Shown piece after piece: positions 234-52,829 of a DNA stretch of 64,000 bases. Under the pieces are notes generated by a model, which saw nothing but the letters and a program-made list of their open reading frames with translations, was not told the origin of the DNA and did no database searches. Both the position numbers and the translations under genes were made by a program. Source of the stretch: a virus; IMG/VR virus record IMGVR_UViG_3300035703_000027, positions 1-64,000 of that record. One strand, given 5' to 3'. Within the stretch, counting starts at the first letter, position 1. Every line of letters starts with the position of its first letter.

Positions 234-535
234 TGGGCGTGCCCCTGGAGGCCCTCGCGGGCATCGGCAAGGCGTTCAAGCGCGCAGGGGTGGAAACCTG
301 CGACTGTGACGACCTCAACCGCCTGATTGCGGTGCTGTCGCCCCTGTTCGCGCCCGGGTACGACGGCCAGGTGGCCGCCCATGAGCGGACGGGCGAATCC
401 ACCCGGGTGCCGGCGTCGGTGTTCACGGCCGTGCTGCGGGCGATCGAGCGGCACGGGGTGACGGTCATCCACGCGGACGACTGCCACGCCATCCTGGTGG
501 CCCTCACGCCGATGTGCCAGCAGGCGGCGCGATGA
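233..535 (+). CDS. Hypothetical protein (100 aa)
   Basis: GAGGAGGGAG RBS, TGATG overlap upstream and ATGA overlap with terL. Confidence 0.6.
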   Translation: MGVPLEALAGIGKAFKRAGVETCDCDDLNRLIAVLSPLFAPGYDGQVAAHERTGESTRVPASVFTAVLRAIERHGVTVIHADDCHAILVALTPMCQQAAR

Positions 536-13746: not shown

Positions 13747-15387
13747 ATGGCCAAGCAGAACCGCTCTTACGCCAAGGCGCCAGAGGCCAAGCCGGGCAAC
13801 TCGAAGCCCCTGCGGTCCTACCTGGTTGACCCCAACGTCCTCAACCTGTCGCACCTCGGCACCCGCCCGCAGGACGTGCGGCATGTGGGGTTCTACACGC
13901 TGCGCGAGATGGCGCGGGTGACGCAGCCCGTCACGGCCATCATCCGCACGCGCCAGAACCAGGTGGCGCGGTTCGCCAAGCTGCCGCGCTACCAGGGCGA
14001 CATCGGGGTGCAGGTGCGCATGCGCGACCCCGAGGCCAAGCCGACGAAGGCGGACAAAAAGCGCATGCGCGAGCTGGAGGACATCGTGCTGCGGTGCGGC
14101 GTGGCGCCCGACCCGGGGCGGCTGCGGCGGCCGGGGCTCGACCCGTTGCTGCGCATGATGGTCGAGGACAGCCTCACGCTGGACGCGATGGCGCTGGAGC
14201 TGCGGTACGACCGCAAGGACCGGCTGTTTGATTGGTGGGCCGTGGACGGGGCGACGGTGCGGCTGACGGTGCCGAGCTACACGGGCGGGCACACGTCGCA
14301 GACGGGCCCGGGCATCTACGGGCTGGTGGGCGAGGGGTACGGCGGGGTGGGGCAGGCGCGCGACGCCGTGATCCAGTACGTGCAGCTCTGGCAGGGCGCG
14401 CCGGTGGCGGAGTACACGGCGGACGAGATGGCCTACTGGGTGCGCAACCCGCGCACGGCGCTGGAGTCCAACGGGTACGGTCAGGCGGAGCTGGAGAGCC
14501 TGATCGAGGTGGTGGTCGGCTACCTGAACGCGATGCTCTACAACCAGCGCTACTTCACGCACAGCAGCATCCCCGAGGGCGTGCTGAGCGTGACGGGGCA
14601 GTACACGGCGGAGAACCTCGACGACTTCCGGCGCTACTGGAACGCGATGGTGTCGGGCGTGAACAACGCCTGGCGGGTGCCCATCCTGGCGAGCAAGGAC
14701 GGCAAGGGCGTCACGTGGACGGCGCTCAAGGGCAACAACAAGGAGATGCAGTTCCACGAGTGGCTCGACTTCCTGACGACGATCGCCTGTGCGGTGTTTC
14801 AGATCGACCGGGAGGAGCTGGGGCTGTCGGGCCGCGGGGCGGGGGACGGCGGGGCGTCGCTTTCCGAGGGCGGCAACGGCGCGACGCTGGCGCACAGCAT
14901 GAGCAAGGGCCTGCACCCGCTGCTGACGCGCATCGAGAGCGGCATCAACGACGACCTGTTCCCGCGGCTGGAGCACACCGAGGACTTCCTGTTCACCTGG
15001 GCGGGGCTGGACCCCGACCAGGAGGACAAGCGGATCGAGCGGGAGACGAAGCTGTTGCAGGCGGGGGTGATGACCGTGAACGAGATCCGGGCGGGGCGGG
15101 ACCTGAAGGGGATCGAGTCGGCGCTGCTGTGGGGCGACGCGCCGGCCAACACGACGCTGTACCAGGCCTGGGCGATGGGCATGCAGGCGAAGATGCAGGC
15201 TGAGGGCCAGGGCGGCGGCGACGACGCGGGCGATGGCGGGGACGGCGACGCGCCGGCCGACGGCCAGGCGCCGGGTGGTGACGGCCAGCCGGGTGCCGAC
15301 GCAAAGGGCGGCCCGCCGGCGGCGCTGCCCAAGGTGAACCCGGACGGCTCCGAGGAGCCCGACGACGAAGCCGGTGGTGGGTCGTGA
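13747..15387 (+). CDS. Portal protein
   Basis: GQAELESL, HSSIPEGVL, LDDFRRYWNAMVSG..NAWRVPIL, EMQFHEW, GVMTVNEIRAGRDL; acidic low-complexity tail. Confidence 0.88.
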   Translation: MAKQNRSYAKAPEAKPGNSKPLRSYLVDPNVLNLSHLGTRPQDVRHVGFYTLREMARVTQPVTAIIRTRQNQVARFAKLPRYQGDIGVQVRMRDPEAKPTKADKKRMRELEDIVLRCGVAPDPGRLRRPGLDPLLRMMVEDSLTLDAMALELRYDRKDRLFDWWAVDGATVRLTVPSYTGGHTSQTGPGIYGLVGEGYGGVGQARDAVIQYVQLWQGAPVAEYTADEMAYWVRNPRTALESNGYGQAELESLIEVVVGYLNAMLYNQRYFTHSSIPEGVLSVTGQYTAENLDDFRRYWNAMVSGVNNAWRVPILASKDGKGVTWTALKGNNKEMQFHEWLDFLTTIACAVFQIDREELGLSGRGAGDGGASLSEGGNGATLAHSMSKGLHPLLTRIESGINDDLFPRLEHTEDFLFTWAGLDPDQEDKRIERETKLLQAGVMTVNEIRAGRDLKGIESALLWGDAPANTTLYQAWAMGMQAKMQAEGQGGGDDAGDGGDGDAPADGQAPGGDGQPGADAKGGPPAALPKVNPDGSEEPDDEAGGGS

Positions 15388-15575: not shown

Positions 15576-15983
15576 GTGCCGGCGGCGATCGCCGCCCGGG
15601 TGGTGCTGCTCGACGGCGACGGGCGGGTGCTGCTGGTGCGGCGGCCCGACACGGCGGCGCTGCACCCGGGCTGCTGGTGCCTGCCGGGTGGGGCGATCGA
15701 CCCATGGGAGACGCCCGAGCAGACAGCCGAGCGCGAGCTGCGCGAGGAGGTGGGCCTCACGGCGACCCTCGTGCCCGGGCAGGTGGCGCCGTTCTTTCAC
15801 GAGGGCGGGCACAGCGTGGGGATGCTGGCGCGCGACCCGGTGGGGTCGCTGCGGCTGTCGCGGCGCGAGGTGGCGGAGGCCTGCTGGGTGGCGCCCGGTG
15901 CGTTGCCGGCGCCGATGATGCCGGGGCATCCCGAGGTGATCGCGCTGCTGGCGCGGCAGGGGCAAGGGGGGGACTTGGCATGA
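15576..15983 (+). CDS. Nudix hydrolase
   Basis: Nudix box GGAIDPWETPEQTAERELREEVGL. Confidence 0.88.
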   Translation: MPAAIAARVVLLDGDGRVLLVRRPDTAALHPGCWCLPGGAIDPWETPEQTAERELREEVGLTATLVPGQVAPFFHEGGHSVGMLARDPVGSLRLSRREVAEACWVAPGALPAPMMPGHPEVIALLARQGQGGDLA

Positions 15984-33637: not shown

Positions 33638-34498
33638 ATGGAAGCCCGACCCCCCGCGCTGTTCGGCCGCGCCGCCTTGCTGGTGGCGGCGGTGCTGTCC
33701 CTGTCATGTGCCGTCGCGGTGCCCGCGGAGGTGCTCGCGCCGCTGGCGGCGGCGTCGCCTGGCGCGTCCCCGGTGGCGGTGCCGAGCGCGGCGCCAACCG
33801 CCCCGGGCGAGGCCGCGCCGGTGCCGGCCCCCGAGGGGGGCTACCCCACGCCGGACCCGGGCGCGCGGCAGCTCCAGGTGGCGCGCGTGGTGGACGGCGA
33901 CACGATCCAGCTCGTGGAGGGCGGCAAGCGCTTTTCGGTGCGCCTCATCGGGATCGACACGCCGGAGACGGTGCACCCGAGCAAGGGCGTGGAGTGCTAC
34001 GGGCCGGAGGCGTCGGCGTTCGTGAAGGGCCTGCTGACGGGCAAGGTGGTGGCCTACGGGACGGACCCGACGCAGGGCGAGACGGACAAGTACGGGCGCG
34101 GCCTGGGCTACGTCTGGTACGAGGGGCGGCTGGTGAACCAGGAGATCGTGCAGCGGGGGCTCGGGCGCGAGTACACCTACGCGAAGCCCTACCGCTACCA
34201 GCGGGAGTTCCGGGCCGTCGAGGCCAGCGCCCGCGCGGCCGGGCTGGGCCTCTGGGGTGGGGCCTGCCCGCAGACGTTCGAGTTCAGGACCCGCACCGAG
34301 CCGCTGGACGGGCCGGCCCTGGTCGATGTGGACAGCCTCCCCGACGCGCCGGAGTACGTCGCGCCTTCGATCGCGGTGAGCCTCCCCGCCGTGGCAAGCC
34401 CGGAGCCGTACAACCCCTGCGGCCCGGGGATGGTCTGGGTGGACGGCTACACGCGCAAGGATGGCCGATCCGTGAAGGGCTACTGCCGGCGCAAGTGA
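33638..34498 (+). CDS. Thermonuclease (SNase-like) with N-terminal hydrophobic signal and C-terminal VDGYTRKDG motif
   Basis: VVDGDTI, VRLIGIDTPET, DKYGR.LGYV, LVNQEIVQRGLG, ARAAGLGLWG. Confidence 0.88.
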   Translation: MEARPPALFGRAALLVAAVLSLSCAVAVPAEVLAPLAAASPGASPVAVPSAAPTAPGEAAPVPAPEGGYPTPDPGARQLQVARVVDGDTIQLVEGGKRFSVRLIGIDTPETVHPSKGVECYGPEASAFVKGLLTGKVVAYGTDPTQGETDKYGRGLGYVWYEGRLVNQEIVQRGLGREYTYAKPYRYQREFRAVEASARAAGLGLWGGACPQTFEFRTRTEPLDGPALVDVDSLPDAPEYVAPSIAVSLPAVASPEPYNPCGPGMVWVDGYTRKDGRSVKGYCRRK

Positions 34499-34973: not shown

Positions 34974-37900
34974 ATGGCCCTGACGTTGCGTGTCCCGACC
35001 CGCCTGCTGAACCGCGACGAGCTGCTCTCGCTGCTCAAGTCGCTCAGCCACACCCGCGCGCACACGCGCCAGACGAAGTACGGCGCGCAGTGGGTGCACG
35101 ACTACTTCCGGCAGAGCAAGGAGGAGCGGGCGGCCCTGGTGGGCAAGCTCGCCAGGAAGCTCGCCCGGGGCGACCACCACGAGGCCATCGGCACGCTCGC
35201 GCAGGCCACGCTGGTGGCGAAGCGCATCAGCCGGCAGGCGCCCATCGACGTGCACGTGACGCAGGACGCGGACGGGCGCTACGGGGTGACGGCGAAGCCG
35301 AAGGCGACGCTCGCCATGCCGGTGGTGGCGTCGGCCGGCAAGGCCTACGTGGAGCACCCGGTGGCCGGCCGCGTCGAGATGAACGCGGTGCTCGCGGGCC
35401 GGGGGCTGCACCAGGTCGGGCGCAAGACGCTGGAGAAGCACGCGCACGTCGTGGCGACGATCGACGGGACGGACCACGCCACGGCGCTTGCCAAGCTGCA
35501 CGGCCAGCAGCGCGAGGCGATCGCCGCCCGGCTGGCGGCCGGCAAGACGGTGGCGGCCCGGGTGGTGGCGCCCCACGATTCTGCGTTGCACGCGCAGCTC
35601 GCCGGGGTGAAGGCGGAGCGGGCCCGCAAGGCGGAGCAGCGTCAGGCGGTCCGGCTGGCGCGCCAGGCGGAGCGCGAGGCGCGCGCGCAGCGCAACCTGG
35701 CGCGCGAGCAGCAGCGCACGGTGCGCAGGGCCGAGCAGAACCGGGCGCGCGCCGAGAAGCGGCGCACGGGCACAGGCCGCAAGCCCGGCGCGCAGCCGGG
35801 GAACGACAACGCCCAGGGTGCGCACGAAGTGCCCGCCTGGGCGCAGGGCGAGCGTACGCTGCCCACCTGGTCCTTCGGGGACGGCGGGGCGCGGCACGTC
35901 GCGGGGCTCGTCAAGGACGCGCTGGGCGAGCACGCGTTCCCGCAGACCACTGCATCGGCACCGGGCGCCATGGCCTATGTTTCGTGGCCGATGGGCGGCT
36001 ACAGCTACAACCTGGAGGTACGCCCCACCGCCGGCAACGTCATGGTGGCCTCGCTGGTGGCGCAGGACGGCAAGGGCCAGCAGGCGACGGTGTGGGAGCG
36101 GGCGGTGGACGGCACGCGTGACGACACCGAGGCCGCCCTGAAGGAGGGCGCCGGGGTGGCGCTGGTGCATGCGGGCCTGAAGGCCGGCACCCTGCCGCCC
36201 CTGCCCGAGCGCTGGTGGGCGCCGAAGCCGCCCGAGGTGGCGCCCACGCCCGAGGTGAAGCCGGCGGCCGAGAAGAAGCCGCGCGTCCGCAGCGGCAAGA
36301 AGGCCGGCGCGCAGCCCGGGAACGACAACGCCAAGGGGCCGCACGACGTGGAGCCGGCCGCCGAGGTGGCGAACCTGCACGCGCACCGGCACGACCTCGC
36401 GGAGCTGGTCAAGGCTGCGCTGGGGCCGGCCGGGGCGCGGCTGCGGGTGCAGGACTTCGCCCCGCGCGGACAGGGGGGCGTGCGGTCGATCATGGGACTT
36501 TCGGGCGCGGACCGGAAGGCGGCTATCGACGGGGTGGTGGGCCCCGGCAGTGCCCTGGAGATCGTAAGCGGCGAGCAGGGCGGGCCGGTCGAGCTGAGCT
36601 GGAGCATGCGGGGGGTCGCAGGGGTCGAGGAGAGCTACAGCCTGAAGGCCACGCCGGGTGGCGAGGTCGAGCTGGGGATGTGGCGCACCGACTACGACAA
36701 CCCGGACGCCAGCGGCTACGTGCCGCTGTGGCGCCAGCCGGCGGGGGCCTCGCTCGCGGAGGTGCAGGCCGCCCTTGCGGCGGGTGCCGAGGCAGCCCTG
36801 GTGCACGCCGGCGAGCGGGGGGACCAGGAGCTGCCGCCGCTGGGCGACGACACGGGCCGCAAGCCCGGCGCGCAGCCCGGGAACGACAACGCCAAGGGCA
36901 CCCGCGGCAAGAAGAAGGAGCGCGCGCCTCTGGCGACCCGGGACATCGCCGGCATGTCGCTGGAGGAGGTCAAGGCGCTCGTCGAGGACACCGCGTCCAT
37001 GCTGGATGGCAACACCGTCTACGACGGCGTGGTGATGGTCCAGGACGGCGCCGGGTTCAACGCGACGGACCACCACGCGGCGCTGCGCTGGCTGGGGCAG
37101 CACTACAAGACGGACCTCGACTACGTGCTGATGGCGCAGTCGCTCATCAAGTACAAGGGGCAGTACCTCGACGATCGCGCGGAGGTGTTCAAGGCGCTGG
37201 TGCGGGCGGCGGCCCCCGAGGACGGTGGTTCCGGGCCGCGCTTCAAGTGGAACATCAAGGCGGCGGGCTGGGTGCTCGGCAACGGGGACGTGCAGGGTGA
37301 GCGCCCGCCCATGTGCGTCTACGCCAAGGGCGAGGGCCAGTACGGGGTGCAGTTCAAGTACAACGCCGACTTCGTGGACGGCATCAAGCGGCTGGTGCCG
37401 CCAGGTCAGCGCACGTGGGACTCCGCCCGCAAGGAGTGGACCGTCAGCGCCCTGGGGGCGAACAAGCTGCTTGGGGAGTTTGGGCACCGGGTCGGGATCG
37501 ACTTCGAGGGGCACCAGGCCCTCGCGGCGGCGATGGAGTCCGAGGCGGGTGAAGCCGCCAAGAAGGAAGCCGCCGAGGCCGAGAAGCGCGCGGCCGAGCT
37601 GGCGGAGGCGCGGGTGCTGATGGGCGACGAGGTGCCGCAGGACGGAGAGTACGTGCTGCGGGGGCTCAAGGTCATCAAGGCGGCGCCTTACGTCACGCTG
37701 GAGGCGGTGCCGGGCTACGCGACCAACTACCAGGTGGCAGTGAAGTTCAACCAGTTCGACCCCGAGTTCAAGGATCGGCTCAAGGGGGCGGTGCGGGCGC
37801 GCTGGGAGCCTGCTTACAAGTCGTGGCTGGTGGACGCCCGCGAGGTGCGGGAGGTGCTCGCGCTGTTCCCGGGGGCCGGCATGGACGCCGCGGTGTACGA

Positions 37901-40460
37901 GGCCCACGGAGCCCTGCTTTCGGAGTCCGACGACGACCTCCGGCGGGCGCTGGGCATGTTCCCGGTCGTGAGCAAGGAGAACACCGACTTCCAGGAGCCG
38001 GCGGGCTGGTCCACGCACACGATGCACGACTACCAGCGCAAGGGTGCCAACTGGCTGCTGGAGACGAAGAAGGGGATCCTGGGGTTCGGGGTGGGGCTCG
38101 GCAAGTGCCTGGGGCACGGGACGCCGGTCATGATGGCCGACGGGAGCATCAAGCCGGTGCAGGACATCGTGAATGGCGATCGCGTGATGGGGCCGGACTC
38201 GGCGCCGCGGACCGTCATGGGGGTCAACCGGGGCCGCGGGCCGCTCTACCGCATCGAGCCCGTGAAGGGCGACGCCTGGGTCTGCAACGACGTGCACGTG
38301 CTGACGCTGCGCCAGAGCGTGGGCGGGGCGGTGTTCGACATTCCGCTGGACCAGTACCTCGCGCACAAGGACACGCGGGCGCTACGCGACGCCAAGCTGT
38401 TCCGGGTGCCGGTGGAGTTCCCGGCCCGGGCGACGGCGCTCGACCCCTACATCCTCGGGGTGTGGCTCGGGGATGGAAACTCGCACCGGCCGAACATCCA
38501 CACGGTGGACGAGCCGGTGATCGAGTACCTGGTGCGCGAGGCGCCGAAGTACGGCGTGGAGGCGAAGGTAAGCCCGCAGCGGACGTGCACGGACGTGTAC
38601 ATGACGACGGCACGGGGCAGTCGGCAGCGCAACGTGGTGCTGGAGGAGGTCCGGCGCTGCTGGGTGGGCGAGGAGAAGCGCATCCCGGCGGACTATCTGC
38701 GCAACGGGCGCGAGGCACGGCTGTTGCTGCTCGCCGGGCTTATCGACACGGACGGCCACCTGACGGGCGGGTGTTACGAGGTCATCACCAAGTTCCCCGG
38801 GTTGCGGGACGACGTGCTCTACCTGGCGCGCAGCCTCGGCTTCGCGGCGTATGCCTCACGGAAGGTGGCGACCATCAAGGCGACCGGCTTCGAGGGGGTG
38901 TACTGGCGCGTCGTCATCAGCGGCGAGCTGGATCAGGTGCCGTGCCGGGTGGCGCGCAAGCAGGCCCCGCCGCGGCGCAGCAAGAAGCTCGTGACCAACA
39001 CGGGGTTCACGGCGGTGCCGCTCGGGGAGGGCGACTACTACGGCTTCACGCTGGACGGTGATGGCCGGTTTTTGCTCGGGGACTTCACGGTCACGCACAA
39101 CACCAACATCAGCATCGCGGCGGCCTGCAAGGCGCAGGAAGAGCACCCGGGCCGGCCTGCTATCTGCGTGGTGCCCGGCAAGCGCCTGTATGGCTGGAAG
39201 GCGGACATCGAGGCGGCGATGCCGGGCAAAAAGGTGTTCGTGTTCGACCAGGGCACCTCAGAGCGCGAGCAGATCAAGAAGGCGGGCGACCTGAGCCAGT
39301 ACGACTTCATCGTCGTGACCTACCGGATGCAGACGATCGAGAAGGACCACCTGGTGGGCCTGAAGCCCAGCGTGGTCATCTACGACGAGGCGCACAAGCT
39401 CAAGAACAAGAAGGCCCAGCAGTCGCAGGCAGCGGCGGAGCTGTCGGCGGCGGCGCCCTATGTGTGGGACCTGACGGCCACGCCGATGCCCAACCGGCCG
39501 GACGAGCTGATGGCCCTCATTCAGCGCAACCACGGCAAGAAGGCCATCCCGTCCAAGGACCTGTGGAACCGCTACTACAAGGTCGAAAAGAGCCGGTTCG
39601 GCTCGAAGGTGGTGGGCATCAAGGATCCCGAGGGCCTTAAGCAGGCGATCGCGCCGTTCGTGTTCATGAAGCGGGGCGACGACGCGGACGTGAACCTCAA
39701 TCTGCCGCCGCTGCGCAAGGGGCGCACGGTGCTGGAGCAGACGCAGTTCGAGCCGGATCAGCGCAGGGCGTACAACAGCGCTGCCGCGAACGTCCTGGCC
39801 TACATCAAGAGCATCGGGGGCAACCCGACGGCGGCGCAGCGGGCGGAGGCGCTGGTGCGCATGGGCAAGCTGGAGCAGATTGCCATCACGCCGGAGCTGG
39901 TGGATCCGACCTACAGCAAGCGGACGCCGAAGATACAGGAGATGCTCGACGAGATCGAGAACCGGGAGGGCGAGTTCCCGGGCAAGGGCCACGTGGTGTT
40001 CTGCCGGTTCGCGCAGGCCCTCCAGATTGCGAAGCGCGAGGCCCTCGCGGACGGGATGTTCAGGCCGGATGAGATCGCCATCATCGACGGGGCCACGTCC
40101 AAGCCGGACGTGCAGCGCATCCAGGACGCCCTGAACGCGGGCCGGCTGAAGCTGGTGCTGTGCTCGGATGCGGCGATGGAGGGCCTGAACTTCCAGCGGG
40201 GCTCGAATCACATGGTGCACCTCGACACCCCGTGGAGCCCGTACATGCAAGAGCAGCGCGACGGCCGGGTGTACCGGCAGGGCCAGCAGGAGCCGGTGCG
40301 CATCCAGACCATCGCGCAGGGCCCGATCGACCAGCATAAGGACACCCTGTCGATGCGCAAGGAGCGCATGAACGCGCAACTGTTCGGCAAGCAAGACGAG
40401 GAGGCCGCGGCCGCCGCCGTGACGGTGGCCGACCTCATGACGATGGCCCGGGAGGTGTAG
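34974..40460 (+). CDS. Leader-cargo protein 7: intein-containing SNF2 helicase (DarB-like in concept)
   Basis: Divergent leader LLKSLSHTRAHTR; GILGFGVGLGK[intein]T, YDEAHKLKN, LTATPMPNRP, EGLNFQ, QRDGRVYRQGQ; three G(A)QPGNDNA repeats. Confidence 0.85.
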   Translation: MALTLRVPTRLLNRDELLSLLKSLSHTRAHTRQTKYGAQWVHDYFRQSKEERAALVGKLARKLARGDHHEAIGTLAQATLVAKRISRQAPIDVHVTQDADGRYGVTAKPKATLAMPVVASAGKAYVEHPVAGRVEMNAVLAGRGLHQVGRKTLEKHAHVVATIDGTDHATALAKLHGQQREAIAARLAAGKTVAARVVAPHDSALHAQLAGVKAERARKAEQRQAVRLARQAEREARAQRNLAREQQRTVRRAEQNRARAEKRRTGTGRKPGAQPGNDNAQGAHEVPAWAQGERTLPTWSFGDGGARHVAGLVKDALGEHAFPQTTASAPGAMAYVSWPMGGYSYNLEVRPTAGNVMVASLVAQDGKGQQATVWERAVDGTRDDTEAALKEGAGVALVHAGLKAGTLPPLPERWWAPKPPEVAPTPEVKPAAEKKPRVRSGKKAGAQPGNDNAKGPHDVEPAAEVANLHAHRHDLAELVKAALGPAGARLRVQDFAPRGQGGVRSIMGLSGADRKAAIDGVVGPGSALEIVSGEQGGPVELSWSMRGVAGVEESYSLKATPGGEVELGMWRTDYDNPDASGYVPLWRQPAGASLAEVQAALAAGAEAALVHAGERGDQELPPLGDDTGRKPGAQPGNDNAKGTRGKKKERAPLATRDIAGMSLEEVKALVEDTASMLDGNTVYDGVVMVQDGAGFNATDHHAALRWLGQHYKTDLDYVLMAQSLIKYKGQYLDDRAEVFKALVRAAAPEDGGSGPRFKWNIKAAGWVLGNGDVQGERPPMCVYAKGEGQYGVQFKYNADFVDGIKRLVPPGQRTWDSARKEWTVSALGANKLLGEFGHRVGIDFEGHQALAAAMESEAGEAAKKEAAEAEKRAAELAEARVLMGDEVPQDGEYVLRGLKVIKAAPYVTLEAVPGYATNYQVAVKFNQFDPEFKDRLKGAVRARWEPAYKSWLVDAREVREVLALFPGAGMDAAVYEAHGALLSESDDDLRRALGMFPVVSKENTDFQEPAGWSTHTMHDYQRKGANWLLETKKGILGFGVGLGKCLGHGTPVMMADGSIKPVQDIVNGDRVMGPDSAPRTVMGVNRGRGPLYRIEPVKGDAWVCNDVHVLTLRQSVGGAVFDIPLDQYLAHKDTRALRDAKLFRVPVEFPARATALDPYILGVWLGDGNSHRPNIHTVDEPVIEYLVREAPKYGVEAKVSPQRTCTDVYMTTARGSRQRNVVLEEVRRCWVGEEKRIPADYLRNGREARLLLLAGLIDTDGHLTGGCYEVITKFPGLRDDVLYLARSLGFAAYASRKVATIKATGFEGVYWRVVISGELDQVPCRVARKQAPPRRSKKLVTNTGFTAVPLGEGDYYGFTLDGDGRFLLGDFTVTHNTNISIAAACKAQEEHPGRPAICVVPGKRLYGWKADIEAAMPGKKVFVFDQGTSEREQIKKAGDLSQYDFIVVTYRMQTIEKDHLVGLKPSVVIYDEAHKLKNKKAQQSQAAAELSAAAPYVWDLTATPMPNRPDELMALIQRNHGKKAIPSKDLWNRYYKVEKSRFGSKVVGIKDPEGLKQAIAPFVFMKRGDDADVNLNLPPLRKGRTVLEQTQFEPDQRRAYNSAAANVLAYIKSIGGNPTAAQRAEALVRMGKLEQIAITPELVDPTYSKRTPKIQEMLDEIENREGEFPGKGHVVFCRFAQALQIAKREALADGMFRPDEIAIIDGATSKPDVQRIQDALNAGRLKLVLCSDAAMEGLNFQRGSNHMVHLDTPWSPYMQEQRDGRVYRQGQQEPVRIQTIAQGPIDQHKDTLSMRKERMNAQLFGKQDEEAAAAAVTVADLMTMAREV
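38106..39101 (+). mobile_element. Intein (332 aa) with LAGLIDADG homing endonuclease, inserted in Walker A
   Basis: Starts CLGHGTPVMMADG, contains LAGLIDTDG, ends TVTHN followed by Thr (+1 nucleophile). Confidence 0.93.
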
Positions 40461-45590: not shown

Positions 45591-47297
45591 ATGCGCTCGT
45601 ACTTCGTCGGCCCGGGGCTGCAAGCCCTGGAGAAGGCCCTCATCCAGGTGCGCCAGCACACCCGGAAGGATGGTACGGTCGTGCGGGCCCACACCCGCAA
45701 CGTCCAGTCCCGCTCCGAGCGGCACGACATGGTGGCGGCCCTGTCGCGCCGGATGGCGGGCGGGGAGCACGTGCGGCACGCCACGCTGGCCTCCGCCCTG
45801 GGGGGCGCCCGGCACGCCTCGAAGGCGAACGGCAAGGCGGCCCACGTGTACGAGCACGCCGACGGCGGCTGGGTGGTGACGCACGACGCCAGCCACACCG
45901 AGGGCCACAAAGAGCGCATCGTGGCGGTGAAGGGCAAGGCGCGCCTGCACCGGGCGAAGGGACCCTCGCGCAGCCTGGCGCACCTCAAGGGCCCCATCGC
46001 GGAGCACACGCCCAAGCCGTTCGTGCCCAAGGTGAAGCCGGCCCGGCCGAAGAAGCAGCCACCGGCCCCCGTGGTGGCGCCGCTGGACGCGCATGGGGCC
46101 AAGCAGCGCGACCGGGTGCTGCCGCCGCAGCGCATCGCGCTGGAGGAGCGCCCCACGGTGCTTGCCGCGCGCGACATGACGGCGCGCAAGGTCGTCATCA
46201 AGTTCAAGGGGGCGCTCCCGAGCCTCAAGACGGCGGAGGTGTTGCGGGCGCGCGGGTTCGAGCCGCAGCCGGGCGACCAGGTGTGGCTCGCCCCGCTTTC
46301 GCGGCGGGCGGTCCAGCTCGCGAACTACACGCGCCGGCGCTACAACGGGCTGTCGCCCGAGGAGCAGGCCGCCTGGGAGCGCTGGCCCGAGCTGCACCCG
46401 CACGAGCGGGAGCTGCTGGCTGCCGCCCCCCTGCCGCGCATCCGGGAGCGGCCCAAAGACTACCTGGTGCCTAACGACCTCACGGAGCGGGCGCGGGCCG
46501 CGGGCGCGGCCTACGGCATCGACCCGCAGTTCTGGCGCAAGGCCCAGGAGTCGCCCGCGTGGCAGCGGCACCTGGAGCGCCGGGTGGCGATCGCCGAGGC
46601 GGCGATCGACCCCGGGCAGCAGGAGCCCGACGACACCCCGCACGGCCTGCTGCTGCGGGCGCACCGCCTCGCCTTGCCGGTGGCGCAAGACCTCGCCGAT
46701 GCGGCCGTGAAGCTGGACCATGCCGCCCTCGCGAACCTCGCCGGCCAGGTCGAAGCGGCCGAACGGTCCGCGGGCGTGGCCCCCGCCTGGGAGCCTGCCG
46801 ACGATCGCAACGTGCGGCACGAGCCCGTTTCCCCGGGCGAGCTGATTCAGCGCGCGCACCGGGCGGGCCTCACGCTGCCGCGCGAGAGCCTGCAAGTGCT
46901 GCTGGCGGAGAAGCCCGACGAGACGGCGGAGGCCCTGCGGCGCGTCAAGGCGGCGGAGGCCGCGCAGTCCGGGACGGGCAGCTTCACGGCCACGCTGCGC
47001 ACGCCCACGGGGCCGGTGTCCCACACCTTCCGGCCCGGCCAGCGCGTGCTCTACCGGACGCCGTGGGGGCGTGTCGAGGAGGCCACCTTGCAGTCGATCG
47101 ACCTGGAGAAGCGCCGCGTCGGGCTGGTGACGTGGCGCGGTGCGAGCGTCGAGGCCCCGATCCTCGACATCACGCAGCCGATGTACCGGGTCATGCCCAA
47201 GGACCCCCCGACGGGCCTGCCCATGGCCAAGGCGCTGGGCCTGCCGCCCCGGGCCCGGCCCGTCAGCTCGCGGCTGTTTGCACGCTTCCTCGGCTGA
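45591..47297 (+). CDS. Leader-cargo protein 10, paralogue of protein 9
   Basis: LEKALIQVRQHTRKDG leader; shared LANYTRRRYNGL.PEE and HTFRPGQRVL. Confidence 0.72.
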   Translation: MRSYFVGPGLQALEKALIQVRQHTRKDGTVVRAHTRNVQSRSERHDMVAALSRRMAGGEHVRHATLASALGGARHASKANGKAAHVYEHADGGWVVTHDASHTEGHKERIVAVKGKARLHRAKGPSRSLAHLKGPIAEHTPKPFVPKVKPARPKKQPPAPVVAPLDAHGAKQRDRVLPPQRIALEERPTVLAARDMTARKVVIKFKGALPSLKTAEVLRARGFEPQPGDQVWLAPLSRRAVQLANYTRRRYNGLSPEEQAAWERWPELHPHERELLAAAPLPRIRERPKDYLVPNDLTERARAAGAAYGIDPQFWRKAQESPAWQRHLERRVAIAEAAIDPGQQEPDDTPHGLLLRAHRLALPVAQDLADAAVKLDHAALANLAGQVEAAERSAGVAPAWEPADDRNVRHEPVSPGELIQRAHRAGLTLPRESLQVLLAEKPDETAEALRRVKAAEAAQSGTGSFTATLRTPTGPVSHTFRPGQRVLYRTPWGRVEEATLQSIDLEKRRVGLVTWRGASVEAPILDITQPMYRVMPKDPPTGLPMAKALGLPPRARPVSSRLFARFLG

Positions 47298-48126
47298 CGG
47301 CGGCCACCTCGGCCGGGTCGAAGCCGTGCTGCAAGGGGTCGAGGCCCACGCGCAGCGCTTCCTGGATGGCGGCGAGGCGCACCGGGGCCAGCCGGCTCCG
47401 GGCGCGGCGAGACAGCGTGCCCTGCACGGTTTCGCGGCTCGCCAGGCGCGCCGGCTCCGCGGGCGTCACCACCCGCTCGGGCGGGGCGGCCACCGCCACC
47501 GCCGCCCGGGCGATCGCCTGGTGGTCGGCGTCGGGGCCGGCGGCAGCCACCAGGGCCGTCGCCATCGTCGCGGCCTCGGCCCGCTCGCGGGCCCGGTGCG
47601 CCTCGCCCTCCACCAGTCCGGCGGGCTTCGTCCACATCGGGCGCCAGTCGCCCAGGATGGCGAGCCGCAGGTAGTGCCCGGGCGCCACGGGCTGCCCCTT
47701 GAGCCGGAAGGTCCAGCCCGCGGCCTTGCGCTCCGCGTGGTAGCCGAGCTGGCGCTCCACCCGCTCCCGGCCGTGCTCCCGAATCAGGTTGACCGCCGCC
47801 CCCGGGTAGATGCCCTCGGCCCGCAGGGCCTGCACCAGCGGGTCGTCGTCCGTCAGCGCAGCCCCCTGCGCAGCATCCTGCGCCGATCCTCTCTCTGTCC
47901 CATGCTCGATCTTACGATCGTCATGCGAAGAATCCTGCGCAGGGACGACGCCGACCTCCCGGACAGCCTTCAGCCCCCCCTCGATGGTGCGCACCGAGCA
48001 GCCCCATGCCTCCGCCCACCGGCCCTTCGGGCAGGGGCCGTCGGTTTCGAGCGACAGCGCGACCAGCACCTGCATGGGGTTCAGGCCGGCGGCAAACAAA
48101 GCGGTGATGCGGTTGTGCAGCGACAT
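47263..48126 (-). CDS. Replication-initiator-like protein (N-terminal HTH, C-terminal helical domain)
   Basis: RWAEAWGCSVRTIEGGLKAVREVG HTH; PGHYLRLAILGDW resembles the NPxGxLxxAIxxDW pattern of Rep C-termini; AAAGGA RBS. Confidence 0.5.
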   Translation of the reverse strand: MSLHNRITALFAAGLNPMQVLVALSLETDGPCPKGRWAEAWGCSVRTIEGGLKAVREVGVVPAQDSSHDDRKIEHGTERGSAQDAAQGAALTDDDPLVQALRAEGIYPGAAVNLIREHGRERVERQLGYHAERKAAGWTFRLKGQPVAPGHYLRLAILGDWRPMWTKPAGLVEGEAHRARERAEAATMATALVAAAGPDADHQAIARAAVAVAAPPERVVTPAEPARLASRETVQGTLSRRARSRLAPVRLAAIQEALRVGLDPLQHGFDPAEVAAVSRGSVQTAAS

Positions 48127-48173
48127 GGGCAATCCTTTCAAGGGGTCCGGCGAAAACACGCCGGGGGGAGCCC

Positions 48174-48202
48174 TTGACACCTGGATCGCGCTGCCATACG
48201 CT
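48174..48202 (+). promoter_or_regulatory. Near-consensus sigma70 promoter, antisense to the rep leader
   Basis: TTGACA-N17-TACGCT. Confidence 0.7.
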
Positions 48203-48208
48203 GGATCT

Positions 48209-48377
48209 GCTCTTGATCTTGTATGGCTTTTTGCGCGGTTTTGGGTGTCAGGGGCGGCGGCTCTAGGGCGGCGGCTTAGGAAACCAACTCCGACGGGTTA
48301 GATGCTTCGGTGTCTGACTGGGCTATCTCGATCCTCGTAACCACCTCCGTGTTCACGCACGGGGGTGGTTATGTTTT
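48209..48377 (+). ncRNA. Candidate ~170-nt antisense (countertranscript) RNA
   Basis: Bounded by the sigma70 promoter and a strong hairpin plus T-rich tract; no convincing ORF. Confidence 0.4.
48338..48377 (+). terminator. Stem-loop with T-rich tail
   Basis: TAACCACCTCCGTG ... CACGGGGGTGGTTA then TGTTTT. Confidence 0.6.
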
Positions 48378-48404
48378 ATAGGGGCTCGCTCGGTTGGATC
48401 GCAA
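48375..48404 (-). promoter_or_regulatory. Candidate sigma70 promoter for the rep-like gene
   Basis: TTGCGA-N18-TATAAA on the minus strand. Confidence 0.4.
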
Positions 48405-48429
48405 GGTCGGCGATCGCAGACGGGACCGG

Positions 48430-48469
48430 GGCAATCCGCCGCGAAGCGCGCACGGGGCCGTGTTACGGT
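48430..48469 (+). promoter_or_regulatory. Class B promoter-like motif upstream of the sigma gene
   Basis: GGCAA-N29-TACGGT. Confidence 0.68.
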
Positions 48470-48489
48470 GGATCCACGGAGGTCCCCCC

Positions 48490-50334
48490 ATGCCCCACCT
48501 GCTGCGATCCGTTGCCGATCACCTCGCCGGGTCCACCCCGCTCCAACGGGTCGCCGGCGCGCTGGCCGGCCCCCTCGAAAAGGGCCTCGTCCACACCTAC
48601 ACGCGCCACATGCACGGCGTCGCCCAGGTGGTGCCCGAGCACATGCGCGCGGACCCCGCCGCCATCATCGGGATGCTTGCCAAGCGGCACCACCACCAGC
48701 TCAGCTTCGACCTGTTCGGCGGTGGCGGCGGCGGGGCGCCCCCGGCCGTCCAGCCCCACGGCGCCGGCAACGGTGGCACGGTGCAGCGCGACAGCATGTA
48801 CCGGGTGCAGGACCAGGAGCCGGCCGTCGGCAGCATCGCGCAGGCCACCTTCAAGCCCGAGCCCGCGCCCCCGGCCACGCAGACGCACCGTCCGCGCGTG
48901 CCCCAGGGGCTGCACCTGCCGGCGGAGAAGGCCGAGGCCCGCAAGGTGCTGGAGGGGGCGCACCGGGACCTGGTGACGGCCCGCCAGCTCGAAGAGGACG
49001 CCAAGCTGGAGCCCGGCCGCCGCGAGGCGCTGCTCGCGCGCGCCACCACGCTGCGCGCGCGGCTCGCCGACGCGGCCGGCCCGGACTACGAGCGCGCCGT
49101 CGAGGGCAAGCTCGTGGCGAACTACGCCCCGGAGATTGGCGGCGTGGTGGCCGACTGGGCCCACAAGGTGGGCGTGCCCGTCGAGCGGGACGCGCACGGC
49201 CGGCCGTCGGGGAACTTCGGCCTGCTGCATGCCGAGGCGCTCGACGCCGCCTACCAGGCGGTGCACCGCTACCGCACCCACAACCGCACCGGCCTGCTGA
49301 AGCTCGTGAAGGGCCAGGTGGAGCAGCGCCTGTTCCGGCACTGGAAGCGGGCCGTCGGCAAGGGCGCGTTCAACATGGGCCAGAACGAGGCCGAGGACGC
49401 GAGCAAGGTCGCACGCTACACCAGCGCGCACGCGTCGGCCTACGGCGAGCAGCCCACGGACGAGCAGGTGGCGGAGGCCCTCGGGATGACGCCCAAGCGG
49501 GTCGCCGACATCAAGCGGCAGGCGATCGCCGCGCTCGGGGACAGCCTGAACCAGACCAGCGAGGACGGCAGCGAGCTGGGAGAGCGGGTGGGCAGCAGCC
49601 GCCAGGACCCGGCCCGGCGGGCGGAGGCCGACGAACTGTCCGACGCCGTGCATACCGCGCTTGCGGAGCTGGATCCGCTGAAGCGCGCCACGGTCCGGGT
49701 GGCGCACGGCATGGGGCTCGACGCGGACACGGCCGCGCACCTCGCCGCGCACACGCAGCTCGACGACCTCGCGGCGGCCTTGCAGGACCACGCCCACCTC
49801 GCCGAGCCCGACGCCCGCGCGACGGCCGCGGTGGGGGCGGTCCAGTGGCGCGCCCCGGGGGACGCGGCGCTGCGGGTGCGGGCGGCGCTGCACCTGCTGG
49901 ACCACGGCGCGGACCCGGTGCAGGCCTTGCAGGCGCCCGAGCAGCGGGAGGATGGGGACAAGCACGACATTTCCGTCTCCGAGGTCTACCGGCGCGTCGG
50001 GCTGAAGCCGGCCAACAGCGGCAGCGTGCTGCGGTCTGCTGAGCAGGCGCTGGCCCGGCACCCGGCGCTGGTCGGCTTCCGGGACGCGCTGCACAAAAGC
50101 TTGTTCGCGCCCATTGGCACGCCGTGGGGGTCGCTGCTCGCGGCGATCGCCCCTGCGGCCCTCCTTGCGAGCCTGCCGGCGCCCTTGGCAGCCCTCGCGC
50201 CCTCGCTCCTCGAAGATGATCGGCACGGCTGGGCGCTGGTGCGGGAGGATCGCGCCGCGGAGGCTGCCATTCTGGCGGCGGCGGCCCAGGGGGGTGGGGA
50301 TGAAACGGTTCACGGTGACGGCGCGGGGCGTTAG
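48490..50334 (+). CDS. Leader-cargo protein 11: sigma70-family (group-3-like) sigma factor with divergent leader
   Basis: LEKGLVHTYTRH..G..VVPEHMR leader; region 2 LHAEALDAAYQAVHRY; region 3 GEQPTDEQVAEALGMTPKRV...SLNQ; region 4 AVHTALAELDPLKRATVRVAHGM, then an insertion, then ISVSEVYRRVG...AEQALARH. Confidence 0.72.
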   Translation: MPHLLRSVADHLAGSTPLQRVAGALAGPLEKGLVHTYTRHMHGVAQVVPEHMRADPAAIIGMLAKRHHHQLSFDLFGGGGGGAPPAVQPHGAGNGGTVQRDSMYRVQDQEPAVGSIAQATFKPEPAPPATQTHRPRVPQGLHLPAEKAEARKVLEGAHRDLVTARQLEEDAKLEPGRREALLARATTLRARLADAAGPDYERAVEGKLVANYAPEIGGVVADWAHKVGVPVERDAHGRPSGNFGLLHAEALDAAYQAVHRYRTHNRTGLLKLVKGQVEQRLFRHWKRAVGKGAFNMGQNEAEDASKVARYTSAHASAYGEQPTDEQVAEALGMTPKRVADIKRQAIAALGDSLNQTSEDGSELGERVGSSRQDPARRAEADELSDAVHTALAELDPLKRATVRVAHGMGLDADTAAHLAAHTQLDDLAAALQDHAHLAEPDARATAAVGAVQWRAPGDAALRVRAALHLLDHGADPVQALQAPEQREDGDKHDISVSEVYRRVGLKPANSGSVLRSAEQALARHPALVGFRDALHKSLFAPIGTPWGSLLAAIAPAALLASLPAPLAALAPSLLEDDRHGWALVREDRAAEAAILAAAAQGGGDETVHGDGAGR

Positions 50335-50506
50335 GTTCAAGAGCGCCAGCCGCGGGGGTCTGGTGGACCCCAAACACAAGCAACCGACGAACATCAGCTA
50401 CACCATCCTGGCAGAGGACATGGAAGCCGCCGCGGACCAGATCGAGTGGGTGATGCGGGCGGAGGACTTCGTGTTCCAGGATCTGCTCGTCACGGGCCCC
50501 CTGTGA
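50300..50506 (+). CDS. Hypothetical protein (68 aa)
   Basis: GGGGA RBS; overlaps the sigma gene end. Confidence 0.5.
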   Translation: MKRFTVTARGVRFKSASRGGLVDPKHKQPTNISYTILAEDMEAAADQIEWVMRAEDFVFQDLLVTGPL

Positions 50507-50574
50507 CGTGCAGCGCCCGTGCTGCGGGCGTGCAGCACGGGCGCTGTGCGGGGGCTGCGTGCGCGCGGCGCGCC

Positions 50575-50886
50575 CTAGACGGGGGCCTCGTCCGCGCTCG
50601 CGGCGCTCGATGGGGGCGCGGGGGCGGCCGGGGCGGTGGGGGGTGCGGCCGGCGGGTGCACGCGGGTGCCCTCGGGGCGGCCGGGAGGCGGCGGGGTGAC
50701 GGGGTCGCACGTCGGGCAGGCCGCGGCGCGCCGCACCGGCACCTTGATCATGGCGGCGAGCGCGTCGGCGTAGCGCTGGGCGTCCGGCTCGGCCCACGCG
50801 TTCGTGAGGTTGAGCCGCTCCCCGTCGCCCACGAGGTCCACGGCCAGGAAGCGGCCGGGGTAGTGCATGTGGAGTTCGATGTGCAT
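50575..50886 (-). CDS. Hypothetical protein
   Basis: GGAGG RBS; CPTC and Pro-rich tail. Confidence 0.55.
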   Translation of the reverse strand: MHIELHMHYPGRFLAVDLVGDGERLNLTNAWAEPDAQRYADALAAMIKVPVRRAAACPTCDPVTPPPPGRPEGTRVHPPAAPPTAPAAPAPPSSAASADEAPV

Positions 50887-50944
50887 GGGGCCTCCATGAG
50901 GAAGGGCCGCGCAGCGGGTGCCGCGCGGCCCGGGGCGGGGCGGT

Positions 50945-51874
50945 TCAGAAGGGCAGCTCGGCGTCGTCGGCCGCGTCCGCGTCGGGCGCCTCGGCCGCCG
51001 GGGCGTCCTGCGCCGCCTTGGCGGCCTTGGCCCGCAGGGCGAGCGCCAGCGCCCGGAGCTGGGCGGGCGTCAGCTTGGTGAAGCCGGCGTACCCGGGGAT
51101 GGTGTCCCGGCAGAACTGCGAGAGCGCCGCCTTGTCGAGCCCGGCGGCCTCGGCCGCGGCCTTGACGGCCGCCAGCGCGTCGCCGTCGGGCCCCTCGGGC
51201 TGCGCGGGCGCTGCGGGCACGCTGCGCACGGGCGGCATGGGCGCAACGGGCGTGTTGCGCATCGGCGGCTCGGCCGCCGCCACCGGGTTCTGGGCCTGGT
51301 CCATCTCCTCGGAGACGTACACGCCGCTCAGCTCGGACGGGAAGGCCCGCCGCAGCGCGAGGGCCTCGGCCACCTTGCCGATCATGACCTCGGGCATGGC
51401 GGCCCAGAACTTCATCAGGCCCCCGTCGCGCCGGCGGGCGGCGTAGGCGTTGAAGCGCGCCACCCCGTAGAGGGGCTGGGTGAACCCGTGCTTGAGCACG
51501 CCCACGCGGGCGGCGACCGGCGGCGTGTCGTAGGGCCACGCCTCGTGCCAGTTGCCGTCCTTGTCGAGCCAGTGCGGGCCCACCTGCCCGGCGTACCGCC
51601 CCGACCGCTCCGCGATGAGGCGGAAGCCGTCGATCGACACCTGGACCGCCACCACGTCGCGGCCCGCGTCATCGCGGCGCTTGACGTAGAACACCTGCCG
51701 GGCGAACGGGTCGAGCCGCAGGCGATTGGTCATGGCGATCGCCATGTCCACCTGGTCGGCCGGGGCGCCCGCCAGCATGGTGCGCTTGAGCAGCGCGATC
51801 TCTTCCTCGGAAAGGAAGGGGCGCTCGATGCTGACCACCTCGCCGGTGGTGTTGTTCACGTGCTCTGCCGTCAT
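50945..51874 (-). CDS. bet: Single-strand annealing protein, RecT/Bet family
   Basis: LDPFARQVF, QVSIDGFRLIAERSGRYAG, WAAMPEVMIGKVAEALALRRAFP..LSGVY..EEM. Confidence 0.92.
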   Translation of the reverse strand: MTAEHVNNTTGEVVSIERPFLSEEEIALLKRTMLAGAPADQVDMAIAMTNRLRLDPFARQVFYVKRRDDAGRDVVAVQVSIDGFRLIAERSGRYAGQVGPHWLDKDGNWHEAWPYDTPPVAARVGVLKHGFTQPLYGVARFNAYAARRRDGGLMKFWAAMPEVMIGKVAEALALRRAFPSELSGVYVSEEMDQAQNPVAAAEPPMRNTPVAPMPPVRSVPAAPAQPEGPDGDALAAVKAAAEAAGLDKAALSQFCRDTIPGYAGFTKLTPAQLRALALALRAKAAKAAQDAPAAEAPDADAADDAELPF

Positions 51875-52520: not shown

Positions 52521-52829
52521 TCAGAGCCCTTCCAGCCAGCCGAGCCGGAACACGTAGCGCACCTGGTGCGCCTCCGCGAGGGCCTCGCCGGCCGTGACCT
52601 GGCGCGTGCCGGCACAGAAGCCCAGGTAGAGGTCAGGGCGCTCCGCCGCCAGGTAGCCCTGCGCGCGCGCCAGCGCCTTGATCGCCACGTAGACCGCCTG
52701 CTGGCCGATCGCCGTGACCTCCAGGTTCAGCTCGCGCCGGAACTCACGCTCCCGCACCGCATGCGCGATGGCGCCGGCGACACGCGCCGGCTGCGACTCG
52801 TTCTTGACCCGGATGGCCGTGGTGCTCAT
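52521..52829 (-). CDS. spoVS: SpoVS-family (Alba-like) protein
   Basis: IRVKNESQPARVAGAIAHAVRE...VTAIGQQAVYVAIKALARAQGYL matches the SpoVS pattern. Confidence 0.8.
   Translation of the reverse strand: MSTTAIRVKNESQPARVAGAIAHAVREREFRRELNLEVTAIGQQAVYVAIKALARAQGYLAAERPDLYLGFCAGTRQVTAGEALAEAHQVRYVFRLGWLEGL

Follow-up and report, generated by a model that had tools for sequence, protein, structure and literature searches.

Phages are known to take over host transcription in two ways, either by injecting a whole RNA polymerase (RNAP) or by making sigma factors and modifiers after entry. The locus described here raises the question of whether there is a third, since a sigma factor built and placed like capsid cargo would mean that only the promoter-selection subunit is delivered. 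The locus lies within the first 64 kb (the window) of the 121,189-bp IMG/VR virus contig IMGVR_UViG_3300035703_000027 (G+C ~72%, completeness estimate 80%) and encodes a sigma-like protein designated P0001, while its relatives are designated P0002–P0010 and the related metagenomic contigs L002–L014. From its sequence and gene context, P0001 appears to be one of the leader-tagged proteins that this phage expresses from the promoter class of its virion genes. An earlier note on this DNA had read the gene as a sigma factor carrying such a leader, and its component claims are considered below where the evidence bears on them.

Identity of P0001 as a Sigma-70-Family Protein

The presence of an open reading frame (ORF) with sigma-70 regions 2, 3, and 4, as proposed in the earlier note, is borne out by profiles, by the predicted fold, and by structural matches. 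The codon-position GC content of the gene (0.80/0.51/0.93) follows the same pattern as that of other real genes. Pfam Sigma70_r3 matched residues 304–365 of the protein (E 3e-5, just below the curated cut-off), NCBIfam RpoD_Cterm matched residues 302–410 (E 1e-7), and PHROG 351, described as “sigma factor,” matched with E 5.5e-6. When P0001 was compared with PDB sequences using phmmer, only sigma chains were found among the matches listed, and a profile built from eight family members likewise recovered sigmas only, among the matches listed, including SigB at E 2.5e-9.

Structure prediction, which the earlier note had suggested as a check, yielded an AlphaFold2 (AF2) model with a mean predicted local distance difference test (pLDDT) score of 74 that is confident over residues 144–600. 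It contains a sigma2-sigma3-sigma4 core at residues ~144–540 for which the top structural matches are sigma factors. The 50 Foldseek matches listed were nearly all chains of RNAP-sigma entries, aligned over 220–430 columns and mostly over 260–300. In VIA comparisons, sigma2 (residues 146–289) matched WhiG with Z 10.1 and a root-mean-square deviation (rmsd) of 3.8 over 111 residues, residues 203–289 matched the SigE N-domain with Z 9.5 and an rmsd of 1.4 Å over 74 residues, residues 147–289 matched sigmaA domain 2 with Z 9.3–9.4, and the whole core (139–540) aligned to sigma70 residues ~100–613.

MAFFT alignment with ordinary sigmas placed regions 2.1, 2.2, 2.4, 3, 4.1, and 4.2 in canonical order, with the core-docking helix of region 2.2 aligned and a 10-aa insert separating regions 2.1 and 2.2. 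Region 2.3, in which THNRTGLLKLVKGQVEQ is aligned to KFSTYATWWIRQAITR, has zero aromatic residues in any register. Group 3 and group 4 sigmas likewise deviate at the region 2.3/2.4 aromatics. Their absence in P0001 therefore weakens the case for canonical -10 reading and leaves that for sigma-70 membership as it is. In the recognition helix of region 4.2, S/G/S/L/R are found where sigma70 has R584/E585/R586/R588/Q589, the residues of its -35 contacts. An insertion before the final helix-turn-helix (HTH), previously put at ~65 aa, is present and measures ~80 aa; it starts after the second sigma4 helix (…VAHGMGL, ~410) and ends before the HTH (ISVSEVYRRVGL, 494).

Closer comparison gave no support for assigning P0001 to the group 3 sigmas. 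The FliA_WhiG model was matched by six of the eight family members (best E 2.5e-6), while RpoD/SigA models match as many, with E 1e-9, so that group 1/2 models match the family at least as well as those of FliA/WhiG or SigB/F/G. The best structural match of sigma2, WhiG, was tied with SigB, SigI, and SigA in VIA. Taken together, these results make it very probable that P0001 belongs to the sigma-70 family, of which it would be a full-length, highly divergent member, as judged from its sequence and model.

Profile searches of the contig for Sigma70_r2, r4_2, or T7 RNAP gave no matches of note, and neither a second sigma nor a T7-type RNAP was found on it beside P0001. The RNAP catalytic domain PF00940 was also unmatched on the contig, in a search that is weak in that the control genomes were unmatched too. 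No match to P0001 was obtained by tblastn against 50,697 phage records, and scans of IMG/VR with P0001 and P0005 found no relatives.

The Sigma Family and Its Gene Neighborhood

A phmmer search of the full library returned 23 proteins, eight of them with E <1e-10 and the remainder ordinary sigmas that match regions 3–4. The true family consists of P0002–P0006, P0008, and P0009, together with the giant proteins P0007 (2,197 aa) and P0010 (2,148 aa). These giants, which represent two lineages, contain in succession a hairpin, a Lys/Ala/Pro-rich linker, a sigma module (Pfam r3), a middle region, and an SNF2 helicase. All three sigma domains and both HTH units are retained across relatives of 25–70% identity, under purifying selection.

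The position of the sigma gene is conserved as well. In the window and in L002, L005, L010, L012, L013, and L014, it is the last gene of a block that encodes DarA_C, LPD1, NUDIX, and SNF2 proteins, and in the window, L002, L010, L012, L013, and L014 the plus-strand block that it closes adjoins a divergent block with SpoVS, MerR, RecT/ERF, or DnaN. The P0007 gene is situated on a 61.7-kb contig that encodes, in order, the portal, a NUDIX protein, an LPD1 protein, an SNF2 protein, and the sigma-SNF2 protein, within a close-packed same-strand gene run that starts at the portal gene. Every related contig has a conserved SpoVS homologue in its divergent early-type block (Table 1).

An ORF of 68 aa begins within the 3' end of the sigma gene in the window, and its homologues are found directly 3' of the sigma gene in L002, L003, L005, L006, and L012. 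The encoded protein, for which no Pfam-type, PHROG, or named Atlas match was found, has a small β-β-α-β fold of a common kind in its AF2 model (pLDDT 81). The fold was considered as a clue to identity and set aside, as the resemblances found with Foldseek and VIA, to eL20/LX and PurS (Z ~6), RNAP epsilon/YkzG (Z 5.7), and T7 Gp2 (Z 5.1), are too unspecific. The protein could be a partner, a chaperone, or an anti-sigma.

The N-Terminal Module and Its Relationship to the Cargo Leader

A leader of ~130 aa is common to 11 genes (17968, 20537, 21857, 23665, 25472, 30362, 34974, 40773, 43658, 45591, and 59752), on which a hidden Markov model (HMM) of the leader scores 159–389 bits. P0001 was not matched by the leader HMM in its full or shortened form (score -1.6), and plain leader HMMs yielded no significant match whichever way the comparison was run, the best non-self match (E 0.05) being on the leader of gene 34974. 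Comparison of the N-termini of the sigma family with the first ~50 leader residues using hhalign gave a probability of 85–89% (P 2.5e-6) and a score of 31, versus 7.5±1.5 in 200 column shuffles (maximum 12). The degenerate leader that the earlier note had placed at the N-terminus is thus recovered by profile-profile comparison, with the first ~45 of the 130 leader residues represented. The canonical leader itself had no tblastn match among the 50,697 phage records and was found only in the window phage and a few near relatives.

Residues 29–70 of P0001 (LEK-GLVHTYTRH.HGVAQVVPEH.R…LAKR.HHQ) are kept in 68%-identical homologues, and a variant of this hairpin-helix pattern opens each distant member of the sigma family. 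The module is also shared with neighboring proteins. The sigma protein of L013 and the adjoining 520-aa protein both begin with K-S-H-V-[KR]-A-…-T-G-K-…-D-S-R-.-K-K-A-P, and in L014 the sigma N-terminus is similarly almost identical to those of its neighbors. The large proteins that adjoin the sigma protein in L014, L010, and L005 have the same hairpin-helix module, and three giant proteins of L005 have it in common. Family members without a propeptide (P0006, P0007, and P0008) have Met directly at the hairpin, and those with a peptide have h-x-K (h, hydrophobic) just before it. Because the propeptide-less members start with Met at the same point, a cut before the hairpin is proposed; the comparison suggests that cleavage, after K31 in P0001, exposes the hairpin as the mature N-terminus.

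The C-terminal LHKS site of the earlier note is present as K536-S537. This motif, D-A-L-H-K536-S-L, is placed ~12 residues after the 4.2 HTH, and K536 is invariant across the sigma family, including the two fusions, in which further modules follow it. K536-S resembles the …EMRK-SLATG near the N-terminus of the major head protein, a predicted maturation site. The motif x-K-(A/S)-L also occurs near the C-terminus of six canonical cargo proteins, where 12–22 residues follow it, while the tail after the P0001 site is 78 aa.

Two further proteins from this part of the contig deserve mention. The leader-tagged SNF2 helicase of 1,828 aa (34974–40460, +) is split by an intein, with a Hint domain at residues 1045–1113 and a homing endonuclease at residues 1246–1316. 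Inside the cargo block, a staphylococcal-nuclease homologue (33638–34498, +) has a signal-peptide-like N-terminus and ends with …VWVDGYTRKDGRSVKGYCRRK. Its C-terminal end is a basic hairpin of the same kind (GYTRKDG-type) as that which opens the cargo leaders, so this hairpin motif is not confined to leader proteins.

Two Classes of Phage Promoter

Class B promoters (GGCAA-N28/29-TAnnnT) number nine in the window, where 0.18 are expected, and 18 in the contig. They precede portal, cargo, baseplate, and tail genes as well as the sigma gene, upstream of which the class B motif described in the earlier note was found to be conserved in relatives. Both boxes are preserved in L002/L003, with a variable spacer, and L006 and L010/L011, whose sigmas are 32% and 36% identical, respectively, have class B 5' of the sigma gene too. 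A correspondence between the sigma4 insertion and the long class B spacer was examined and rejected, since it does not track across lineages (P0007/L005, P0006).

The ten class A motifs (GCATA-N15-GGATRG) of the earlier note were recovered as eight exact and two one-mismatch sites, against 0.81 expected. These sites lie 40–70 nt 5' of start codons, and the genes include those for DpdA/TGT-like and RecT proteins along with further small genes or genes of DNA metabolism. A G-rich/C-rich hairpin and a GAAAGGA ribosome-binding site come after every one of these sites. A class A-like layout is present in two related contigs, in both cases ahead of early-type minus-strand genes. L013 has three sites of the form CTACAAA-N10-GCGATAG (11558, 12799, and 15358, -; 0 expected), each followed by a GC hairpin and an GAAAGGAG ribosome-binding site, and L012 has two of the form CCATA-N16-GGAGAG (5481 and 7321, -; 0.02 expected). 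A two-box promoter that drifts among lineages sharing the sigma is what a phage-encoded reader would predict, although the sites are few and the hosts may differ. Promoters of the sigma70 type were not enriched (9 versus 5.7 expected). One of the genes 3' of a class A promoter is the queuine tRNA-ribosyltransferase/DpdA-like gene 4407–5498 (+), which matches phrog_887 (E 3e-21); modification of the phage DNA with 7-deazaguanine is a possibility.

With the N-terminal module, the upstream class B promoter, and the LHK-S motif all real and conserved in relatives, the P0001 gene can be assigned with high confidence to the cargo gene set of the phage.

The Region Upstream of the Sigma Gene

A host-type promoter, an intrinsic terminator, and the class B motif follow one another upstream of the sigma gene, and this order (host-type promoter, hairpin with T run, class B motif) is conserved in the window, L002/L003, and L010. 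The host-type promoter is conserved in L002/L003 and reads TTGACG-N17-TACTAT in L010 (sigma 36% identical). The terminator stem is kept in L002/L003, and L010 has equivalent hairpins with T runs. Lying just upstream of the sigma gene, the terminator appears to shield it from upstream transcription. The 177-nt transcript expected from the host-type promoter would be strongly structured (z = -4.9), and an Rfam scan of 47500–51000 found nothing.

On the minus strand, the conserved segment 48381–48418 reads TTGCGA-N18-TATAAA by eye and would serve as a promoter for the HTH gene 47263–48126 (-), with its start codon placed at 48126. The plus-strand unit that begins at the host-type promoter and this minus-strand promoter converge across the long leader of the HTH gene, a layout also seen in L010. 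The plus-strand unit may yield an antisense RNA for the HTH gene, or it may feed early transcription, in attenuated form, into the sigma gene.

A Model for Delivery of the Sigma Factor and Its Alternatives

The explanation favored here is that the sigma gene would be transcribed from its own class B promoter, along with the portal, tail, and cargo genes, and that the N-terminal hairpin-helix module would bring the protein into the prohead. Trimming would follow a hydrophobic-x-K-(G/S) pattern, with one cut behind K31 and another behind K536, and the protein would leave the capsid with the DNA and bind host core RNAP. Initiation would then occur at phage-specific promoters, for which the best candidate is class A (GCATA-N15-GGATAG with its 5' hairpin and GAAAGGA ribosome-binding site). 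We infer each step of this chain, from packaging and cleavage to injection, core binding, and the promoter class read by P0001, and regard the whole, ending in class A initiation, as plausible though short of probable. The chain accounts better than its rivals for the tag and motifs of P0001 and for the position and fusions of the sigma. If it is true, the first class A transcripts would be made by host core with a sigma brought by the virion, a minimal alternative to a virion RNAP. In its broader form, which is held with some reserve, the proposal is that an uncultured clade of myoviruses with SPO1-like portals packages a processed sigma, whether free-standing and tagged or fused to SNF2, and injects it for the class A start.

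Several observations weigh against this chain. Of the 130-aa leader, P0001 has just the first third, while the second half (…HATLASA…GWVATHD…) is absent, and after residue 70 the protein continues into a Gly/Pro-rich linker instead. The h-x-K-[SAG] motif is loose, as LVKG and VGKG occur within sigma2, and neither a recognizable head protease nor Peptidase_S78 was found on the contig, which is estimated to be 80% complete. Canonical promoter recognition is not assured, because the melting aromatics are absent from region 2.3 and the 4.2 recognition helix has S/G/S, and the analogy with sigmaF promoters is only a lead, because group 1/2 models match the family at least as well as those of group 3. 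The earlier description of the sigma promoter as late-type stands as far as the presence of class B is concerned, while the timing is drawn from gene content only, because class B is also found 5' of SpoVS in L010 and L012. As read by eye, the early genes of L014 and L005 appear to be preceded by promoters of the TTGTAT/TTGTAA type. Finally, the host-type promoter at 48174–48202 is the sole site of the form TTGACA(at least 5/6)-N16-18-TAnnnT in 121 kb and lies 280 nt upstream of the sigma gene. With host-type promoters at the sigma locus, early transcription need not depend on an injected factor, and read-through from this promoter could supply the sigma early without packaging.

The conserved host-type promoter keeps alive the idea of an ordinary phage sigma cascade without packaging, which we consider somewhat unlikely. 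Host RNAP would start at this promoter, some transcripts would pass the terminator, or class B would be an activator-dependent host promoter, and the sigma made in the infected cell would then turn on class A (or class B) genes, as do SPO1 gp28 and gp33/34 and phiEco32 gp36, while the N-terminal module would serve some other purpose, for instance the binding of DNA or of a partner. This account fits the orientation of the contig's only canonical host-type promoter, which points toward the sigma gene in a layout conserved in L002, L003, and L010, and it fits the downstream hexamer of class B, TAnnnT, which is the same as the -10 of that promoter. It is also consistent with the portal, which is 33–35% identical to portals of SPO1-like (Herelleviridae) phages and to that of Aeromonas phage ST4, and SPO1-like phages employ phage sigmas in a cascade (PMC13401047, PMC12282133). 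The GYTRKDG-type hairpin at the end of the secreted nuclease homologue, outside the leader proteins, likewise fits this account. However, the strong, conserved terminator, with its 17-pair stem, separates the host-type promoter from the sigma gene. Moreover, a cascade leaves unexplained the shared N-terminal module, the linker, the invariant K-S site, and the constant placement of the gene as the last of the cargo block, as well as the fusion of the sigma into leader-bearing proteins of 2,150–2,200 aa behind the portal gene. If the ordinary cascade is nevertheless correct, the family is still an unusually divergent group of sigmas, in which sigma4 carries an 80-aa insertion and the melting aromatics are absent.

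An improbable alternative is that the protein is a sigma-shaped handle on RNAP, packaged or not, that displaces host sigmas (shut-off) or brings an SNF2 motor to the enzyme, with no promoter-specific initiation. The core-docking helix of region 2.2 is recognizable and is nearest to consensus in the fused forms (DLLQEG in P0007), whereas the melting aromatics and -35 contact residues are missing. The module is fused to SNF2, a family that includes the RNAP-recycling enzyme RapA, and the RapA/SNF2 link has been discussed for phage helicases (PMC7824862); the polyvalent-protein context points toward host takeover and counter-defense (PMC5512222). However, all three sigma domains and both HTH units are under purifying selection in relatives of 25–70% identity, and phage-specific two-box promoters co-occur with the family and have no other candidate reader. 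Very improbable is a sigma that reads class B, not class A, its 80-aa insertion letting the HTH reach a TGGCAA box ~12 bp further upstream so that it activates itself along with the virion genes: this would suit the 29-nt spacer (instead of ~17), the large rigid sigma4 insertion, and the conservation of class B 5' of the sigma gene in relatives, but the sigma gene, with a class B promoter of its own, would face a start-up problem, the insertion is present in L005 (P0007) while the 22 kb examined there contain no class B motif, P0006 is without most of the insertion, and the TAnnnT hexamer resembles a host sigma -10. The handle and class B readings overlap partly with both packaging and the ordinary cascade.

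Comparison With Known Phage Systems

SPO1 gp28 and gp33/34, phiEco32 gp36, and T4 gp55 are likewise encoded by phage sigma-family genes, redirect the host core RNAP, and act with phage-specific promoters unlike sigma70 sites. Early or middle promoters drive their synthesis in the infected cell, whereas P0001 is proposed to be cargo, and they are without a capsid-type leader, flanking protease-like motifs, or polyvalent fusions. P0001 also differs from them in its 80-aa sigma4 insertion and its long extensions at both termini.

The model proposed for P0001 follows the logic of the N4 gp50 and phiKZ/AR9 virion RNAPs, in which a transcription component is made late, packaged, and injected for the early genes. 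N4 and phiKZ/AR9 package complete polymerases (PMC4496689, PMC5449584), whereas here the promoter-specificity subunit alone would be delivered and the host core used. T4 IPI-III and Alt and the inner-body propeptides of phiKZ similarly combine an N-terminal tag with head-protease cleavage as a route into the capsid, and Alt acts on host RNAP after injection (summarized in PMC5512222). In contrast to those tags, the one in P0001 is a basic hairpin plus helix that would be retained in the mature protein, as the proposed cut falls directly ahead of it, and its candidate cleavage motifs are h-x-K-(S/A/G) rather than L-x-x-E or S/A/G-x-E.

Packaging and delivery along with the DNA have also been predicted for the polyvalent proteins found in phages and conjugative elements, among them the P1 Dar system (Iyer et al. 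2017, PMC5512222). Common ground with the present family includes very large multi-module proteins near the portal, the DarA_C, LPD1, NUDIX, and SNF2 modules, and, in two lineages, fusion of the sigma. In the window phage, the modules are split over ~12 genes, each with its own leader copy and promoter. The word “sigma” occurs 0 times in the polyvalent-protein paper (PMC5512222), and the family described here would add a transcription module to the polyvalent repertoire. A search of the literature turned up no description of a sigma associated with virions. The SU10 sigma was considered as a precedent and rejected, as it was represented by a single peptide in a particle preparation that contained many non-structural proteins (PMC4281155). 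The ~ten diverse sequences of the family, with their candidate cognate promoters, are testable in vitro without phage culture.

Features of the Locus and the Phage

The phage is a myovirus with large terminase subunit, portal, major head protein, tail sheath, and baseplate genes. The features of the sigma locus and of the phage genes used for orientation are collected in Table 1.

Table 1. Coordinates of features discussed in the text (window positions unless another contig or the whole contig is named).
Feature	Position	Strand	Remarks
Host-type promoter TTGACA-N17-TACGCT	48174–48202	+	Toward sigma gene; overlaps 5' region of minus-strand HTH gene
Intrinsic terminator	48336–48380	+	17-pair stem, then TTTTAT; between host-type promoter and class B
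Class B motif GGCAA-N29-TACGGT	48430–48469	+	21 nt upstream of sigma ATG
Shine-Dalgarno GGAGG	48478–48482	+	Sequence reading
Coding sequence of sigma-like protein P0001, 614 aa	48490–50334	+	ATG 48490, stop 50332–50334
Variable N-terminal peptide ending LEK-G, residues 1–31	48490–48582	+	Candidate propeptide
Basic β-hairpin and helix (GLVHTYTRH…VVPEHMR…IIGMLAKRHHH), residues 32–70	48583–48699	+	Cargo-type N-terminal module
Gly/Pro-rich linker, residues 71–143	48700–48918	+	pLDDT <50, weakly conserved
Two long helices, then sigma2 (regions 2.1–2.4), residues 144–296	48919–49377	+	VIA, alignment with ordinary sigmas
Sigma3 (region 3.0/3.1 HTH, GEQPTDEQVAEALGMTPKRV), residues 298–365	49381–49584	+	Profile matches
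Sigma4, residues 374–530	49609–50079	+	VIA, alignment
Helical sigma4 insertion, ~80 aa, residues 411–493	49720–49968	+	Between region 4.1 and 4.2 HTH; pLDDT 93–98
LHK-SL motif (K536-S537)	50089–50103	+	Candidate head-protease site
Conserved C-terminal tail (…DRAAEAAIL…), residues 537–614	50098–50331	+	pLDDT ~70–80
68-aa ORF	50300–50506	+	Overlaps sigma stop codon in another frame; conserved downstream partner
SpoVS homologue	52521–52829	-	
SpoVS homologue, L010	16519–16827		
SpoVS homologue, L012	6338–6628		
SpoVS homologue, L014	17147–17770		
Large terminase subunit	514–2571		
Portal	13747–15387		
Major head protein	76211–77689 of contig		

A search of sequencing runs showed that DNA of the contig is present in subsurface and freshwater metagenomes, and the same search found no RNA runs containing it. 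The portal gene of the window is flanked by two genes for enzyme-like proteins. Just 5' of it, a gene at 12462–13451 (+) encodes a class II aminoacyl-tRNA-synthetase-like protein of 329 aa (tRNA-synt_2, E 3e-37). Directly 3' of it lies a NUDIX hydrolase gene (15576–15983, +), and a NUDIX hydrolase is likewise found in this position in L005 and L014, there fused into giant proteins.

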